Positions 3,328-64,000 of a DNA stretch of 64,000 bases are shown here, one piece after another. The stretch's first letter is position 1; every line of letters begins with the position of its first letter. A model generated the notes under the pieces. The model had not been told where the DNA came from. It saw only the letters and a list, made by a program, of their open reading frames with translations, and did no database searches. The position numbers and the translations under genes are program-made. Source of the stretch: Dictyostelium discoideum (Eukaryota); the NCBI GenBank assembly GCA_000004695.1, contig CM000153.2, positions 1,600,001 to 1,664,000 on the forward strand, read 5' to 3'.

Positions 3328-4931
3328 TTAGAATTCACCTCTTGCGAGACGATCCAATAAATCATCTAAAGAATCATCATCAACCACAGTAGTTGAAGTA
3401 GTTGTTGAACTAGTGGTGCCAATTGTATCCAATGAATTTATTGCCATATCATAATTGATTGCATTTGAATTTTGATTAGAGATAGATTGATTAGCCTCTT
3501 TAAGAAGATCATCGAAATTAAAGTTATTTGAATTCATTATTGATTCCAATTCTTCAAAAGTAAATGATTCTTCATTATCATCATTAACAATTACATCATT
3601 TGATTTATTTTCATTTTCAATTGTTTGTTCTTGATGTTGATGTTCTTCCTCAATTGCATGTTCTTCTTCATAATATTCTTCTTGGTGGTGTTGCTCTTGT
3701 TCTTGTTCTTGTTGTTGTTCTTGTTCTTGTTCTTGTTGTTGTTGTTGTTCCTCTTGAATTGGCTCTCGAGGTTGTTCTTGTTCATCATCATATTGTTCAT
3801 AGTGTTGTTGATCTTCTTCATAATACTCCTCTTCTTGTTGTTGAGGTTGTTCTTCAACAACGGGTAAATTAACAGGTTTTTCTGGAACTGGTGGCTTTGT
3901 TCTTGCTGGTGGTGGTGGAGGTGGAGTTTTTTTTGGTGGATTATTATATTGTAATGAAACTGGTCTCTTAATTTGTGGTGAATCAGTTGGTGATGGTGGT
4001 GGTGGAAGAACTGAAATATCAATTGGTGGTGGTGCATCTTGTGATGAAGTAAGTGTTGGTGGTGGTGGAAGAACTGAACCAGATGGTGATAATGTAGTTT
4101 CAGAAGCTGTCGTTGTTGGTGGTTGTTTAATGAATGATCTTGGTGGTGTTGGTGGTTTTTTCAAAGTTTCAACTGGTGGTGGATTCATTTGTTGTAATAA
4201 TTGTGGTGAAACTGGTGGTGGTTCACTACTAGTTCTTGATAATATAGTAGAAGGTGGTGATAATGAACCATCCGTTGTTGTTGTTGTTGTTGTTGGTGGT
4301 GGTTGATTTGGTGATTTTGCAATTGGTCTTTTTGCAACAGGTGGAGGTGGTGCTAATGTAGTTGGTGGTGCTGTTGATGTTGTAGTTGGTGGTGGTACTG
4401 ATGGTCTACCTGGTGGTAAAGTTGGTTTATTAGATGGTGAAAGTTTAGTAGTGGTAGTTGATTTTGGTGGTGGAATTGGTTTAGGATCGCCTGCTTTTGG
4501 TGGTGCTTTTGGTACAAATTGACTTGGAGCTGGTGATTTCTTTAATGCTGTTGGGGGTGGTGATTGAGGTGGTGGTGGTAAACTATTACCACTACTTGAT
4601 AATGCATTATGTGGTAATGAAGGTTGTAGTGGTGATTTTGGTGGTGATGGTAAAACTGTATTATCACTACTAGATGATAATGGTGGTGGTGCAGCAACTG
4701 AACCATTTGCAACCTTTGGTGGAGGTTTTCTTTTTGCCATCATTGGTGCTGGTTTACCAGTGGCATTGGCAGAATTTACTGGTTTTAATTTTGCAATTGT
4801 TGGTTGTGGTGGTTCTGGTACCACATCTCCATTACTATTTTTATTATTATTATTTACATTTGGTGATGGTTTAGCAGCTATCTTTCTTTGTGGTGGTAAT
4901 TTTTTATTTGCAGTATTTTGACTATTATTAC

Positions 4932-4975
<44 letters not shown>

Positions 4976-5870
4976 GTCATCATCATTGAAATTCTTTGTT
5001 TAGTTTGTTCTGGACTTGTATCATGGAAATGTTTAATGATTATGCCCAAAATTCTCATCATTGTTTCAGGTCTAGTCTCCCACATATCTTCACCAGTGAT
5101 ATTTACTAAATTAACACCTAAAACTTTTAAGAAACGTAAAATGATATTATTATTTTCAATTATATGAATTTTTGTTGTTGGTGTTCTATTGAAATCTTTA
5201 ATTGATAAACCACTTAAACCTTCCAATAATAATGCCAAAACACAACCATTTTTTAAATCTGATTCTAAATTTTCAATCTTTTCATTCTTTCCAAATTCAA
5301 CTAATTTCTTATTAATCCAATCAATTATAACTGTTTGTGATTGTTCTTTTTTTGGTGTTGATTTTAAAATTGGTTTCTAAAAAAAAAAAAAAAGGAAAAT
5401 AAAACTATTAGTGTTGTTTTTTTTTTTTTTTTTTTTTTTTTTTGGAAATTAAATTAAAATAATAATCATACATTATCAGGATTATTTCTTTTTAAAGCAA
5501 TTTCATTCATTAATGGATTAATACCGAATGATCTTTGTGGTGCTCTATCTTCATCTGGAGTTGGTGGTGGATGTGATGGTGGACCTGAATCACCAACTGA
5601 AACACTTGTTTTTTGAGGTGTTGGTGGCAATCTAGATGGTGGTTTACTAGTAGTATTAGTTTGAGTTGATGCTGAAACACCATGTGTTGTTGTTGGTAAT
5701 GATTCTTCACCCCATTTTACTGAATCCTTTTTCTTTTTGAAGATTAATTTAAATTTATCTAATTGGTTATCCTCTTCCCATTTTTTATAAATTGTTCCTG
5801 GATTTTCTGTTTCTGCTATCTCTTGACATGTAATTCCTAATTCATTTTCATTGTTTGTTGATTTTATCAT
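3328..5870 (-). CDS. Calponin-homology (CH) domain protein with a long Pro/Ser/Thr-rich region and an acidic Gln/Glu-rich C-terminus. Two exons: about 5870..5472 and 5376..3328, roughly 815 aa
   Basis: Exon 1 (track ORF 5466..5870, 'MIKSTNNENELGITCQEIAETEN...') ends at NPDN, followed by a GTATGA donor. An AT-rich 95-nt intron ends in TTTTTAG. Exon 2 begins 'KPILKSTPKKEQSQTVIIDWINKKLVEFGKNEKIENLESDLKNGCVLALLLEGLSGLSIKDF...', a classic CH-domain signature (IIDWIN...L.DL.NG..L..LLE.LSG), and then runs in frame into track ORF 3328..5238. The plus-strand ORFs across this region (3600-3872, 4674-4874) are repeat artefacts. Confidence 0.6.
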
Positions 5871-28708: not shown

Positions 28709-29569
28709 CCATTTTATTTTCACTTTCAACCAAATAGTTATTATTATTATTATTATTAATTTATAAATAAATCACTAAATAAATAAATAAATAAAATAAA
28801 ATAAATAATATACTTTATAATAATTAATTAATTATTAAGTAAAATAAATAAAATAATAGAAAAAAAAAAAAAAAAAAAAAAATATAATAATAAAATTGTT
28901 TTAAACAAAAACTTCAAATAATTTAATTATTGTAACCATATTTTTATTTTTTTAATCAAAAAAAAAAAAAAAAATAAAATAAAATAAAATAAAAAAAAAA
29001 AAAGGTATAAAAAAAATTTATTATGAAAATATTATTTTATTTCCAAATTTAATCTTCTGGTGAAAAAAAACCCCCCCGTAAAAATTATATGTTTGTGGAA
29101 AAAAAAAAAAAAAAAAAATTATTTTTTATTTTTTTATTTTTTATATTTTTTTTTTTTTTTTTTTTTATTTTTTTATTTTTTTATTTTTTTATTTTTTTTG
29201 AAATTTTCCAACACAGAGGAACAACAACAACAATATTAATTTTCTATATAATAATTTTAGCAGTAACAATAATTAAAAAATAATAGTAATTGAAGCAAAA
29301 ATTAATAATAATAAATTATAATAAATAATAATAATTATAAATAATAATAGAGTTTTTAATAATTAAATCCAAATTACTTATATATGTTTTCTTAATTTTT
29401 TTTCTTATTTAACTTTAGAAATTTTAAAATTTTTTTTTCCTCAATAATTTAAAGAAACTACACATAAATAAAAGCAAAAAAAAAAAAACAAATCAGATTT
29501 ATATATAAACAAAAATTATTCTAACTATATATTAAAATATATAGTTAGATAATTGTACAAAACTTTAAA

Positions 29570-32993
<3,424 letters not shown>

Positions 32994-59362: not shown

Positions 59363-61825
59363 TTATTATTATTATAGCCAATTCAGCTACATTATTTAGA
59401 GGATTAAGTACAGCAACAAGATTAATTTCAGCATTTTATAAAAGAGTTGGAGAAAGTTATTTGAAATATTTATTACAACCATTTGTTATTGATCTTTGTA
59501 GTAGAAATTTTTCATTTGAAATTGATCCGGAAAAAGCAGGAAAGGGTGTAAATATTCAAGCAAACTTGGAAAAATTAATAACAATTACTCAACAACTTTT
59601 AGATAAAATTTTAGATTCTGTTGATCAATGTCCTTTGTAAGTTTTTAATTTTTATTATTTATTATTATTTTAATTTTAAATATTAATATGTAATTAATAA
59701 ATAAATAATTTTATAGACCAATAAGACAAATTTTAAATCATACACAAGAAAAAGTTGAAAAAAGATTTAAATCAATGAAAACAACAGTAGTTGGTGGATT
59801 TATATTTTTAAGATTTATATGTCCAGCAATTGTTGCACCAGAAGCATTTGGATTAATACCTAGAGAAGAAGAACCAACCTCTGAAACTAGAAGAGGTTTA
59901 GTATTAGTTTCAAAGTTACTTCAAAATTTGGCAAATGAAATGCCATTTGGTTCTGGTATTAAAGAGGAATATATGTCTTATTTAAATGATTTCATTACAA
60001 ATAATTCAACAAGAATTCATGTTTTCTTTGATAGTTTAGCTCAAGATCCAACTCAACAACAACAACAAATACAACCATTACAACAACAACAACAACAACA
60101 ACAACAACCTTCATCAACTTCTACAAATCTTAATGCCACAAATAATAATAATAGTAATTGTAGTAGTAACCATACAAGTAGTAATAATATTGGAAGTGGT
60201 GTATCAACACCAAAGTTAACAAGTACACCATTGGGTTCTGTTCAACAATCAAGTGGTAACCATAATGAAGATTCAAATAGTAATAATAATAATAATACTA
60301 CTAATACTACTACCACTACTAATAATAATAATAACAACAATATAAATAATAACAACAACAATAATAATAATAATAGTAGTAATAATAAATTAAATTCAAT
60401 TATAATGACTGAGGATTCAATAACCGATAATTTAAATGTACTTATGAATCAAATCATAGAAAATAGAGAGAAAATTGAAAATTATATACAAGAGAATGGA
60501 AATATAGATTCATCATCTGATATTATTAAAAGATTGGATACCTCATTACAAGCTGCAAAACAAAAAGCATCATATTTTAATTTTTGGGGAAGAGGAAAAG
60601 ATAAGAGTAATATTAGCGGTAGTGGTGGTGGTGGTGGTGGTAGTAGCGGTGGTCCTACAACAAGTAATGGAAAATTAAAGAAATCACCATCTGCTGGAGT
60701 AGTTTCCAATTCAAATCATATTCAACAATTACAAGAAAAAGAAAGAGAAAAAGAAAGAGAAAAAGATAAAGATAAAGAAAAAGATAAAGATAAAGAAAAG
60801 GATAAAGATAAAGAAAAACATGCTAGTCAAAAGAAATTACAATTAAGTCAATCACAACATACTTTAGTATTAGATGGTATAAGTACTAATGGTGGTAATA
60901 TTAATAATAATAGCAATAATAATAAATCTCTTTTAAAAAATCAGGGTCAATTATCAGAAGAATTGGAAATGAGAGATCAAAAAGAAGTTGATAATTTAAA
61001 TTTAATGGCAGAGAATTCAAGATTAAAAAAAGAATTGGAAGATGCAAAATCAAGAAATAATTTATTAAGAAAGTTGAGAGAAGAATTAGAACGTGAAAAA
61101 AGTGAAAAAAAGGAATTGAAATTATTAATTAAAAGGTGTAATGATAGATTGAAATCATTGGATGATCAATTGGATTTAATTAATGATTTACAACCTTGGG
61201 TTGATGATAATCCTCCAAGTGGTAATCATGATTTACAATCGTTGATTGAAGAAACTCTTGGTGTTGGTGGTAGTTTATCAAATAGAAAGAAATCAAATTC
61301 TTCACTTGGTATATCAAAAGTTCGTGGTTATGATACTGCTCCAACAACTCCAACCAATACAATCTTATCTTCTTCAACTACGAATATACCTTCAATTACA
61401 AATGCAATGATTAATCATAATAATATTAATGTTAATATTTGTGCTATTAATGGAAGTAAAGATACTACTAGTAGTAGTACTTTAATATCTGCAACTTCAA
61501 CACCAACAATATCAATCGTTGATAATTGCACAACCGCTACATCTTCATTACAACCATCACCACAACCAAATTCTCAATCTGTAAATTTAAATCATTCAAC
61601 AAATTATATTCCACATTTAGATGTTTCTTGTGATAGTAATAATAGTAGTACTACAAGTAGTTTTTATAATAATCAAAATAATTTAAATTCAAATAACAAT
61701 ATAAAGAAATCATCAACAAATCAAAGTATATCTGAAAGTTTAATGTCTGAAATTTCTGAGGCTGATGAAAGTAAATCTGGTAGTAATATTTCAATTAGTA
61801 GTGCCACAATTCATTCAAATAGTGG

Positions 61826-61863
<38 letters not shown>

Positions 61864-62275
61864 GCGGCAGCAATGGTAAAGGTTCAAATTCAACATCAGG
61901 TCTAAGTAGAAAAAATTCAACAACTTCTGAAATGTCAATGGCTGACCCAACAAATTATGAAAATCAAAATTTAATAATTCAAACTGTTGTAGAAGGTGGT
62001 GAAATTTTAGATGATTCTGCTTGTGATTTATTGGAATTCTTAAAAGAAGTTGCATCAAAACAAGAATTACAAAAATCTAAAGAAAGACAAAGACTTCAAG
62101 AAGAAAAAGAAAATAAAGCCAAAAATTCTGTATTCTTTAAATTCTCCTCAAAATTCTCTTCAAAAAGGAGATCCAAAGATGGAAAAAATCAACCACTCTC
62201 TCCACCATTATCATCACAAAATAGTCAACAAGAAAAAGATTCTCCAAATTCTGGTGCAGCATTATCTTTAAATAA

Positions 62276-62279
<4 letters not shown>
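58818..62279 (+). CDS. Ras GTPase-activating protein (RasGAP domain) with a long coiled-coil and low-complexity C-terminal region. Four exons: 58818..58985, 59066..59246, 59378..59636, 59717..62279, about 1057 aa
   Basis: Donors are GTAAGT (58986), GTATGT (59247) and GTAAGT (59637), with acceptors TTTAG, TATAG and TTATAG. The product contains the RasGAP signature 'TVVGGFIFLRFICPAIVAPEAFGLI' (consensus FLRFINPAIVSP). Upstream of it is the GAP helical core 'NSATLFRGLSTATRLISAFYKRVGESYLKYLLQPFVIDLC'. Downstream are Gln/Asn tracts, an '(EKDKDK)n' repeat and heptad-rich 'ELEMRDQKEVDNLNLMAENSRLKKELEDAKSRNNLLRKLREELEREKSEKKELKLLIKRCNDRLKSLDDQLDL'. Confidence 0.75.
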
Positions 62280-62306
<27 letters not shown>

Positions 62307-62691
62307 GAAAAACAATTAAAAACAATTAAAAACTTGTACATATAATATTATATATATATTTTTTTTTATGCACTGTATAACAAAGAAAAAAAAGAATAAA
62401 TAATTTAAAAAAAAAAATAAAAAAAAATATATCTTTCCAGTTGATTCAAAAATAGTTTTTTTTTGCCTTTAATGTCCAAACTCTGATTAATCAAAAAAAA
62501 AAATATAGTTTTTTTTTTTTTTTTTATTAGGTTTTTAATAAAAATTATTAATATTTCAGACCTAGATTCAGATGTTTATCATTAAAAAAATGGTTGCTTA
62601 GATTTTTAATTTTTTAAAAAATAAATAATTAAATTTTTTTTTTTTTTTGATAAAATACACCACCTGGCTTTTTAATGATATAAAAAAGACA

Positions 62692-62746
62692 GTTGACGAA
62701 GGTTTCTTTGAATGTAAGGAAATGTTAGATTTGCTGTAAGGTCAAC
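62692..62746 (-). ncRNA. Class I RNA gene, the dictyostelid-specific ncRNA of about 55 nt, copy A
   Basis: The minus-strand transcript reads GTTGACCTTACAGCAAATCTAACATTTCCTTACATTCAAAGAAACCTTCGTCAAC. It has the conserved 5' GTTGACC and the CCTTACAGCAA motif. Its 3' CGTCAAC pairs with the 5' end to close the terminal stem. A T-run follows (TGTCTTTTTT), and a DUSE box lies 73 nt upstream on the same strand. Confidence 0.7.
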
Positions 62747-62818
62747 TTTAATGTTTCTCACATTTTCTTAAAATGATATAAACATATAAAATTGAAAACA
62801 TTAAAATTAAAAATAGAA

Positions 62819-62827
62819 TTATGGGAT
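62819..62827 (-). promoter_or_regulatory. DUSE (Dictyostelium upstream sequence element) for Class I RNA copy A
   Basis: The plus strand reads TTATGGGAT, which is ATCCCATAA on the minus strand. It matches the [AT]CCCA[CT]AA consensus, is 73 nt upstream of the copy A 5' end, and sits in an otherwise AT-rich spacer. Confidence 0.55.
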
Positions 62828-62934
62828 CCAATCCTCCTAAATTCTTTTAAATTAATAAAAATAATTAATTTTGTTTGAAAATTCTTTTTTTTTTTTTTCT
62901 TTTTTTTTCTCAATTTTTTTTTTTTTTCCCAAAA

Positions 62935-62942
62935 ACCCATAA
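62935..62942 (+). promoter_or_regulatory. Consensus DUSE oriented towards the GC-richer block starting near 63000
   Basis: ACCCATAA matches the [AT]CCCA[CT]AA consensus. A second CCCA motif (AATCCCATTT, 62962-62971) lies 27 nt downstream. This DUSE is about 110 nt from the copy A DUSE and in divergent orientation to it. Confidence 0.4.
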
Positions 62943-63004
62943 AAAGTTTTAGTCAAATACCAATCCCATTTTTAAATTTTAATTAAATATATTTTCAATG
63001 GGCA

Positions 63005-63245
63005 TATCAGGACATCGAGTTTAAAACCTATTCAGACTCCAGAATACAAATTAATTTGAGCGGCAACGTTCATATCAATCTACACTTAACAAATCATCAG
63101 ATGGTTAAAAAAATGCTGAGAAGTAACAGCATTAAAAAAAAACATTTAGACCACAGTTGAGAGTCTTAAAATCCCAACCAGTTAGTAGAGACTAAAAATC
63201 TACAAACAATAAACTCGATCTGATAACTGAAATGTCTTTTTTTTT
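63005..63245 (+). ncRNA. Candidate DUSE-driven small RNA gene (unassigned class). About 240 nt, ending at a T10 run
   Basis: AT content drops abruptly, to roughly 60%, exactly 60-70 nt downstream of the DUSE at 62935. No ORF is present. The block contains a perfect 6-bp hairpin ATGCTGAGAAGTAACAGCAT (63125-63144) and terminates at GTCTTTTTTTTTT (63237-63249). The minus strand of 63017-63110 additionally shows box C/D-like features (CUGAUGA, then about 60 nt, then CUGA, flanked by AACC/GGUU), which I list as an alternative reading. Confidence 0.35.
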
Positions 63246-63537
63246 TTATTATTTTTTTTTTATAATGGTAATAGAAATGGAAATGGTAATGTGACATCCC
63301 TATTTACATCAACAAAAACTATATCATATCTACAGAAACCTACTTGCAATAAAAGAAGTTCAAGAAGAAAAAAAATAAATATAAAAATAAAAGTGTGATA
63401 ATAATTTTATTGATAATAATAAATAATATGTACATCATATTATTATAAATAATATTTACTAATTTATTTTTTTAATATATATTTTAAATTAAAAATTTTT
63501 TTTTTTTGAAATGTGAATGCAATCACAAAACAATTAA

Positions 63538-63590
63538 GTTGATCCTACAGCAATTCTATCACTATACATACAAAAGAAACCTTCGTCGAC
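63538..63590 (+). ncRNA. Class I RNA-like copy B. Degenerate, possibly a pseudogene
   Basis: The sequence is GTTGATCCTACAGCAATTCTATCACTATACATACAAAAGAAACCTTCGTCGAC followed by T16. It is related to copies A and C. The conserved motif is altered (CCTACAGCAA, lacking one T, and GATC for GACC). No consensus DUSE lies at about -70; only AATCACAAA lies at -10. Confidence 0.45.
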
Positions 63591-63607
63591 TCTCTTTTTT
63601 TTTTTTT
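63591..63607 (+). terminator. T-run (T16) immediately 3' of Class I-like copy B. An analogous T8 run follows copy C at 63943-63950 and a T6 run follows copy A on the minus strand
   Basis: An oligo-T run directly abuts the 3' end of each of the three Class I copies. I read it as the termination signal. Confidence 0.4.
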
Positions 63608-63803: not shown

Positions 63804-63812
63804 ATCCCACAA
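63804..63812 (+). promoter_or_regulatory. DUSE for Class I RNA copy C
   Basis: ATCCCACAA matches the [AT]CCCA[CT]AA consensus, 72 nt upstream of GTTGACC at 63884. Confidence 0.55.
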
Positions 63813-63883
63813 AATTATTTTTTATTTAAAATTTCTTAAATAATTAATTTTTACAATCTTTATTTAAATGTGTAAACATTTAT

Positions 63884-63939
63884 GTTGACCTTACAGCAAA
63901 TCTTACAGTTCCTTCATTCTAAGAAAACCCTCCGTCAAC
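63884..63939 (+). ncRNA. Class I RNA gene, copy C
   Basis: The sequence is GTTGACCTTACAGCAAATCTTACAGTTCCTTCATTCTAAGAAAACCCTCCGTCAAC. It has a perfect 5'/3' stem (GTTGACG/CGTCAAC), the CCTTACAGCAA motif and a downstream T8 run. A DUSE ATCCCACAA lies 72 nt upstream. It shares about 85% identity with copy A, in opposite orientation. Confidence 0.7.
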
Positions 63940-64000
63940 TGTCTTTTTTTTAATTAATTATTTATTTTTTATTACCATCATTAAAACTTTTGGAAACAAA

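Follow-up and report, generated by a model that had tools for sequence, protein, structure and literature searches.

A candidate DUSE-driven gene for a structured noncoding RNA within a Class I RNA gene cluster of Dictyostelium discoideum

Class I RNAs are, to our knowledge, so far the only class of noncoding RNAs (ncRNAs) linked to multicellularity in dictyostelids; they are encoded by clustered, rapidly evolving genes. The promoter signal of these genes, named Dictyostelium upstream sequence element (DUSE), lies about 60 nt ahead of the transcription start site or of a second motif, the TGTG box (PMC3188802, PMC7919456). Class I expression needs the DUSE, a correctly placed DUSE predicts Class I expression with almost no false positives, and the mature RNAs begin 10-13 nt after the TGTG box (PMC7919456). 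The U1, U2, U4, U5 and U6 small nuclear RNA (snRNA) genes of D. discoideum also depend on this element (Hinas et al. 2006, as cited in PMC3188802 and PMC7919456). Here we describe a locus on chromosome 4 of D. discoideum strain AX4, located in a stretch of 64,000 nt (hereafter the window; a chromosomal position is the window coordinate + 1,600,000), where a DUSE on the + strand faces a GC-richer block (chr4:1,663,000-1,663,240) lying between the Class I genes DdR-23C (-) and DdR-24A (+). Judging from its sequence signals and modelled fold, this block is probably an independent + strand gene, driven by the DUSE and terminated by RNA polymerase III (Pol III), for a structured ncRNA of ~210-240 nt. 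The most likely description is that of a Class I gene chassis carrying a different, much larger, lineage-specific RNA, and we regard the locus as a good candidate gene, not as a discovery.

Promoter, block and terminator signals

An earlier note on this DNA had reported a perfect DUSE, and the 8-mer is indeed an exact match to the consensus [AT]CCCA[CT/AT]AA on the + strand (Table 1). Ten matches to the consensus occur in the window: four are inside long open reading frames (ORFs), another three have nothing but A/T homopolymers after them, and the remaining three share a Class I-like context, namely DNA of at most 13% GC with a block of 28-35% GC from position +60. These three belong to DdR-23C, DdR-24A and the candidate. 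Both Class I neighbours carry the TGTG box AAATGTG, at 63866-63872 for DdR-24A (DUSE at 63805) and at 62765-62759 for DdR-23C (DUSE at 62826), in the same +61 register as the sequence CAATGGG of the candidate, which by analogy would work as the box of its promoter. The predicted start, 62997-63000, is located 61-65 nt from the beginning of the DUSE, in agreement with the spacing and orientation rule of DUSE promoters. Alignment of the three promoters with MAFFT found nothing common to them beyond the DUSE. Outside the promoter-proximal region and the terminator, the candidate is bracketed by an imperfect 17-nt inverted repeat (62958-62974 and 63272-63288, TACCAATCCCATTTTTA and TAGAAATGGAAATGGTA, 82% complementary), whose left arm holds a partial second DUSE-like sequence, ATCCCATT, at 62960-62967.

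The GC-richer block of about 240 nt that had been noticed some 60 nt past the DUSE is present, with a GC content of 32.8% (63000-63240) instead of the ~40% first given; the richest 100-nt window within it reaches 36% GC, compared with 17-19% in the flanks. Its beginning, previously set at 63005, is at 63000 (GGGCAT), and the GC-richer sequence runs from there to 63236. The block is also devoid of convincing coding potential, as had been claimed: the longest + strand ORF has 34 aa (with a TTG start), the - strand one, of 43 aa, is mostly outside the block, and neither of them has a match in Pfam. Just past the terminator, a further ~120 nt (63250-63370) are also somewhat richer in GC (24-26%) than the following DNA (5-15%), and they contain neither an ORF nor a recognised motif.

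The block ends in a T-run that had been described as T10 but is actually T11, preceded by TGTC. This context is rare: TGTC precedes just three of the 746 runs of at least six T on both strands of the window, and these are the runs of DdR-23C, DdR-24A and the candidate (the three TGTC-T(n) sites being 62682-62691 on the - strand and 63233-63247 and 63940-63951 on the + strand). When runs of at least five T are considered, TGTC is found before four of them in 128 kb, the fourth being a TGTC-T5 at 23296-23288 (-). Such a distribution suggests that TGTC-T(n) is a preferred terminator or 3'-end module of this type of DUSE gene. Upstream of the terminator, the + strand is free of T4 runs from 62992 to 63237 (245 nt); neither strand of the 1.7-kb intergenic region has a longer stretch of this kind. 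The - strand of the block carries T4, T7, T9, T4 and T5 runs and, therefore, Pol III would stop on it. Taken together, these signals bear out the likeness to the Class I neighbours that had been proposed (DUSE, gap of about 60 nt, structured RNA, T-run), as far as in-silico features go.

Table 1. Features of the candidate locus and of the neighbouring sequence ddi_can_1 (window coordinates)
Feature	Position	Strand	Remarks
DUSE ACCCATAA	62935-62942	+	exact consensus match; AT-rich non-coding DNA, GC-richer block at +60
TGTG-box-like CAATGGG	62996-63002	+	61 nt after first DUSE base; probable start region of primary transcript
Predicted primary transcript, ~237-241 nt, 33% GC	63000-63240	+	multi-hairpin body closed by terminal helix
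Terminal helix, 5' strand (GGGCAU, UCAG, AUCGAGUUUA)	63000-63023	+	predicted to pair with 63210-63237 (6, 4 and 10 bp)
Hairpin UGAGCG/CGUUCA, 4-nt loop	63057-63072	+	predicted; pair probability 0.98
Hairpin AAUGCUG/CAGCAUU, loop AGAAGUAA	63112-63133	+	predicted; pair probability 0.97
Hairpin GUU.GUAGA/UCUAC.AAC	63181-63207	+	predicted; pair probabilities 0.90 and 0.99
Terminal helix, 3' strand (UAAACUCGAU, CUGA, AUGUCU)	63210-63237	+	predicted; reaches first U of terminator
Terminator TGTC + T11, Pol III type	63233-63247	+	T-run 63237-63247; TGTC context
ddi_can_1 region	63509-63604	+	AAATGTG box 63509-63515; body 63538-63592 (GUUGAUCCUACAGCAA...); CTCT-T14 terminator

Predicted fold and transcribed strand

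Folded as RNA, the + strand of the block attains a minimum free energy (MFE) of -51.5 kcal/mol, corresponding to a z-score of -4.9, with none of 200 shuffled sequences being as stable; an independent run gave z = -4.7, and the - strand has z = -1.9. Background values in the window have a mean of -0.27 and a standard deviation of 1.44, and 2 of 340 random window/strand samples show z of -4.7 or less. Random 241-nt samples around 4579-4820 (+), 5365-5605 (+) and 29415-29655 (-) yielded z-scores of -5.1, -4.4 and -5.3, respectively; the first two have 26-39% GC, and all three may be repeats or coding sequence. The predicted structure consists of several hairpins enclosed by a terminal helix of 20 bp in total, with pair probabilities of 0.93, 0.88 and 0.94 for its 6-, 4- and 10-bp segments. 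The last of these segments, AUCGAGUUUA/UAAACUCGAU, is a perfect 10-bp inverted repeat, which was independently confirmed. The 6-bp stem ATGCTG/CAGCAT singled out before any folding is also recovered (63113-63118 and 63127-63132), extended to 7 bp. Since the helix starts at the base where the DUSE predicts transcription to begin and extends to the terminator's first U, promoter, structure and terminator define one unit. An internal A9 tract, AAAAAAAAACAUUU (63134-63147), has 93% complementarity with the U-tail and the 3' end before it, AAAUGUCUUUUUUU (63230-63243); this pairing would be an alternative that sequesters the oligo-U tail and is not favoured in the MFE fold.

The strand, previously left open, can be considered resolved in silico in favour of the + strand because five independent features favour it: the orientation of the DUSE, the T4-free run, the asymmetry of the fold z-scores, the G.U pairs in the terminal helix and the terminator. 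There are two such G.U pairs, and both become A.C mismatches if the helix is read on the - strand.

The contrary proposal, put forward in the earlier note, was a box C/D layout on the - strand, which would correspond to a small nucleolar RNA (snoRNA) of ~80 nt (63106-63025) guiding 2'-O-methylation via UUUGUAUUCUGGAGU upstream of box D. Its motifs are all there, with TGATGA at 63099-63094 (CUGAUGA), CTGA at 63035-63032, a gap of 58 nt between boxes C and D, and a 4-bp AACC/GGTT clamp at 63106-63103 and 63028-63025, but the snoRNA reading itself fared badly and we consider it extremely unlikely. The Rfam scan called for in the earlier note matched no family for the candidate, either with gathering scores across the entire window or with E <= 10 in two narrower intervals of 601 nt (62800-63400) and 249 nt (62996-63244). 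Overall it returned the neighbouring Class I pair, a poly-A artefact (CrcZ) and a weak generic match to snoZ30 (13.9 bits, E = 4.5), far below the gathering score of 50 bits; the DdR snoRNA families had no match. Moreover, seven equivalent layouts exist in the 64-kb window, three unpaired nt on either side offset the clamp from the boxes, and the first base of box C is C where a purine is expected. As far as Tables S4 and S5 of Diesend et al. (PMC8817022) extend, the 47 snoRNAs of that genome-wide snoScan and RNA-seq screen do not include the candidate. The tables list no chromosome 4 snoRNA near 1.663 Mb (OR9 being judged by its gap of 83 only, not by its location), and CUGAUGA boxes occur in them only with gaps of 97 and 83, against 58 here. 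Guides are already assigned for 46 of the 49 mapped methylation sites. Finally, no promoter element faces the - strand, and the fold of that strand is the weaker one.

From the + strand features we infer how the candidate would be transcribed and what its RNA would look like. The DUSE at 62935 would recruit the transcription machinery of Dictyostelium snRNA and Class I-type genes, with a start ~60-65 nt downstream, at CAATGGG (~62997-63000). Transcription would then pass through a body without T4 runs and stop, in a Pol III-like manner, at TGTC-T11. The first 24 and the last 28 nt of the transcript could pair into the 20-bp helix, leaving a short 3' oligo-U overhang, so that the helix would close and protect the two termini, with a multi-hairpin body between them. 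The perfect 10-bp segment starts at 63014, 11 nt after the CAATGGG box and, because mature Class I 5' ends are found 10-13 nt after theirs, a processed form of ~210 nt starting near 63014 may exist as an alternative to the full transcript of 237-241 nt. By analogy with Class I RNAs, the product would most likely be a stable RNA, cytoplasmic or nuclear, that is bound by protein and serves as a scaffold or regulator; the terminal helix and a La-type oligo-U tail would shield its ends.

Neighbouring genes, synteny and origin of the locus

Upstream of the candidate, a gene on the same strand (59775-62279, +) encodes a RasGAP-domain protein. As its ORF ends at 62279 in the same orientation, the block might belong to a longer RNA polymerase II (Pol II) transcript, either as part of the RasGAP 3' untranslated region or as an exon of a long noncoding RNA (lncRNA), the DUSE and the T-run being coincidental. 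This is very improbable, given that the RasGAP gene and the candidate are separated by a validated Class I gene of the other strand (62688-62746) and by ~700 bp of DNA with 13-17% GC and long T-runs. The portion of the lncRNA data covered here (PMC5295588) has no entry near chr4:1.663 Mb, which is weak evidence in the same direction.

Within the window, Rfam detects two Class I RNAs, one on the - strand (62690-62746) and one on the + strand (63884-63941). Both have the same sequence and position as genes that the supplement of Kjellin et al. 2021 (PMC7919456) annotates on chromosome 4 (DDB0232431), namely DdR-23C at 1662688-1662746 (-) and DdR-24A at 1663882-1663941 (+), and they place the window at chr4:1,600,001-1,664,000 of strain AX4. 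Their cluster runs past the end of the window with DdR-23B, -26, -23A, -24B and -54 (PMC7919456), and the candidate occupies its first interval. We found no tRNA gene in the window. Between the candidate and DdR-24A there is a degenerate Class I-like sequence, at 63538-63592 (+), which is ddi_can_1 of the supplement of Kjellin et al. (PMC7919456), a covariance-model match of 32-50 bits kept outside the curated Class I set (PMC7919456). Its 11-nt motif is short by one base, no DUSE was found 60 nt upstream of its TGTG box, and it is probably a dead copy. The DdR-23C (-) to DdR-24A (+) interval spans 1,136 bp, and the DdR-23B (-) to DdR-26 (+) interval, with the same gene arrangement, 1,199 bp. 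From this near-equal spacing and shared arrangement we predict, by analogy, a paralogue of the candidate at chr4:1,667,001-1,668,200 (AX4), ~4.3 kb downstream and beyond the window.

Comparison with Dictyostelium firmibasis places the whole cluster in a lineage-specific context. The RasGAP orthologue of this species (P0001, locus L001) is 75% identical to the window protein; COBRA1 comes ~370 bp after it, and no RNA gene lies in the interval (L001 13463-13835, CM069766.1). The D. discoideum counterpart, from window position 62279, is occupied by Class I-type RNA genes that form a cluster at least 14 kb in size. At this site the whole cluster, the candidate with it, is therefore an insertion or expansion in the D. 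discoideum lineage. The gene probably originated within this cluster, where it would have reused the promoter geometry and terminator context of Class I genes.

A rearranged region with a ~240-bp unit bounded by imperfect inverted repeats, among them the perfect 10-mer, also calls to mind a non-autonomous DNA transposon of the miniature inverted-repeat type or a repeat fragment, in which case the terminal helix would represent terminal inverted repeats. We consider this very improbable. Neither the 64-kb window nor the 23-kb D. firmibasis locus contains a second copy. At the ends no target-site duplication is visible by eye, no transposase or reverse transcriptase ORF lies nearby, and the window has no tRNA gene of the type that TRE elements target. 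In addition, a random insertion would not be expected to be framed by a DUSE at the proper distance and a terminator of the Class I type.

Several observations speak against a functional RNA gene. Single-sequence fold z-scores as extreme as that of the candidate occur at a few other sites of the window. The DUSE 8-mer is found about as often as expected there (10 observed versus 9.6 expected), and CAATGGG is identical to the TGTG box AAATGTG at five of seven positions only. The absence of T4 is weak evidence when taken alone because 43-56% of shuffles of the block's own composition are also without TTTT. When the window (64 kb) and the D. firmibasis locus (23 kb) were searched for a paralogue with blastn and nhmmer, only poly-T and low-complexity matches were returned, and with no homologue found there is no covariation support for the fold. 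The absence of the gene from the D. firmibasis synteny implies, furthermore, that it is mobile or of recent origin, and the case for a conserved function is weaker for it.

These last two points, the missing syntenic locus and the missing covariation, would also agree with a silent relic of the segmental duplications behind the Class I cluster, one that kept a DUSE and a terminator and makes no stable RNA. The cluster already holds at least one relic, ddi_can_1, with its TGTG box at 63509 and no DUSE upstream. We nevertheless find this explanation unlikely, though deserving of serious attention, since the candidate, unlike ddi_can_1, retains an intact DUSE at the correct distance, and a DUSE so placed predicts Class I expression almost without false positives (PMC7919456). 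A 20-bp helix joining both ends, a + strand free of T4 and a fold z-score of -4.9 would also be unexpected in decaying sequence.

We found no earlier record of the locus in the sources consulted. The parts of the Class I, lncRNA and miRNA supplement tables that we searched have no entry for chr4 1,662,9xx-1,663,2xx, and a literature search with sequence strings of the candidate found nothing. Exact look-ups of the window's ORFs likewise returned no record, in protein and contig collections apparently without D. discoideum sequences. A 21-mer of the candidate had no match in metagenomes. Both helix strands separated by a gap of 171-200 nt had two metagenome matches, located in GC-rich bacterial contigs (L002 and L003), which we take as chance. 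The word new, when applied to this RNA, thus means absent from Rfam 15 and the sources searched; an earlier annotation, for example in dictyBase, is possible.

If the candidate is confirmed as an RNA gene, it would indicate that the DUSE cassette can be reused to create new RNAs, with Class I promoter and terminator modules flanking a long structured RNA devoid of the Class I motif. It would also supply a new candidate abundant RNA in a model organism in which the vault RNA and the telomerase RNA are still unassigned. If it is not expressed, it would exemplify how easily relics made of a promoter and a terminator, with convincing folds, arise in AT-rich genomes.

Comparison with known RNAs

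The earlier note had not matched the 5' end of the block to U1, U2, U4, U5, U6, U3 or 7SL RNA, a negative that the Rfam search upheld even at E <= 10. Within the Rfam scope given above, the candidate has no match to Class I, Dictyostelium signal recognition particle (SRP) RNA, RNase P/MRP, U3, U snRNA, DdR snoRNA, Vault, Y RNA or 7SK models. Two further identities were rejected. For telomerase RNA, the candidate has no template: apart from the terminator, its + strand has no pyrimidine run of five or more. D. discoideum telomere repeats are of the type A-G(1-8) (PMC6592521) and those of D. firmibasis are GAGGAGAGAGTCCCTTTTTTT and GGGGAGAGACA (PMC11193728); the longest matches of the candidate to the complements of the latter are A7 and TGTCT. 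For RNase P/MRP, a CR-V-like string, AACCUAUUCAGACUCC, is at the wrong (5') position, the order of the elements is wrong, and there is no covariance-model support. This string can pair over 6 bp with a CR-I-like one, GAGAGUCU, and we judge AACCUAUUCAGACUCC to be coincidental.

Vault and Y RNAs resemble the candidate in their Pol III-type terminator and in the combination of an end-joining helix, here predicted, with a U overhang. Vault RNA genes have an internal box A/B promoter and products of 80-150 nt that associate with TEP1/MVP. By contrast, the candidate, at ~240 nt, is twice the usual length of vault and Y RNAs and has an external DUSE instead of internal boxes; inspection by eye found no box A or box B in it, and RF00006 (Vault) gave no match. 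D. discoideum does possess vaults, with MVPA/B and a TEP1 orthologue, and a 2026 study of vaults names no D. discoideum vault RNA (PMC13100048). That the candidate might be this missing subunit of a conserved ribonucleoprotein, namely a DUSE-promoted vault RNA of the TEP1 orthologue with twice the usual size, is a very long shot, given that even the sister species lacks the gene at the syntenic position.

The DUSE-dependent snRNA genes are closer in promoter and size, since in the candidate the DUSE is also ~60-63 nt before the predicted start and the transcript would fall in a similar size range; U6, their Pol III member, shares the T-run terminator as well. Unlike the snRNAs, however, the candidate has no Rfam snRNA match, its 5' and 3' ends are predicted to be paired, and it has no convincing Sm site, the only resembling sequence being AAUUUGAG, which overlaps a hairpin strand.

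The closest system remains that of the Class I RNA genes (RF01414; DdR-21 to DdR-67), even though we rejected the identification of the candidate as a Class I RNA, which would be four times too long, too strongly structured, and without the 11-nt motif. No covariance match to RF01414 appeared at E <= 10 in either of the two intervals searched. Its predicted body of 210-240 nt contrasts with the 42-65 nt of Class I RNAs, its predicted terminal helix of 10-20 bp with their 6 bp, and its fold z-score of -4.9 with those of Class I precursors (-0.6 to +0.7), which fold no better than shuffled sequences. The conserved 11-nt motif, CCUUACAGCAA, which adjoins the 5' stem in Class I RNAs, is absent, its nearest equivalent being CCUAUUCAGAC, 3 nt after the stem. 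The idea that pairing of leader and trailer is a trait common to Class I precursors was rejected too, as Class I leaders fold on themselves. What the candidate does share with Class I genes is the frame around the RNA: it lies in the same cluster with a DUSE in the same orientation, has a box (degenerate, CAATGGG) ~60 nt after it and a predicted terminal helix pairing the 5' and 3' ends that begins 11 nt after that box, against 10-13 nt in Class I genes, and ends in the same TGTC-T(n) context (...UGU-U(n) at the 3' end).

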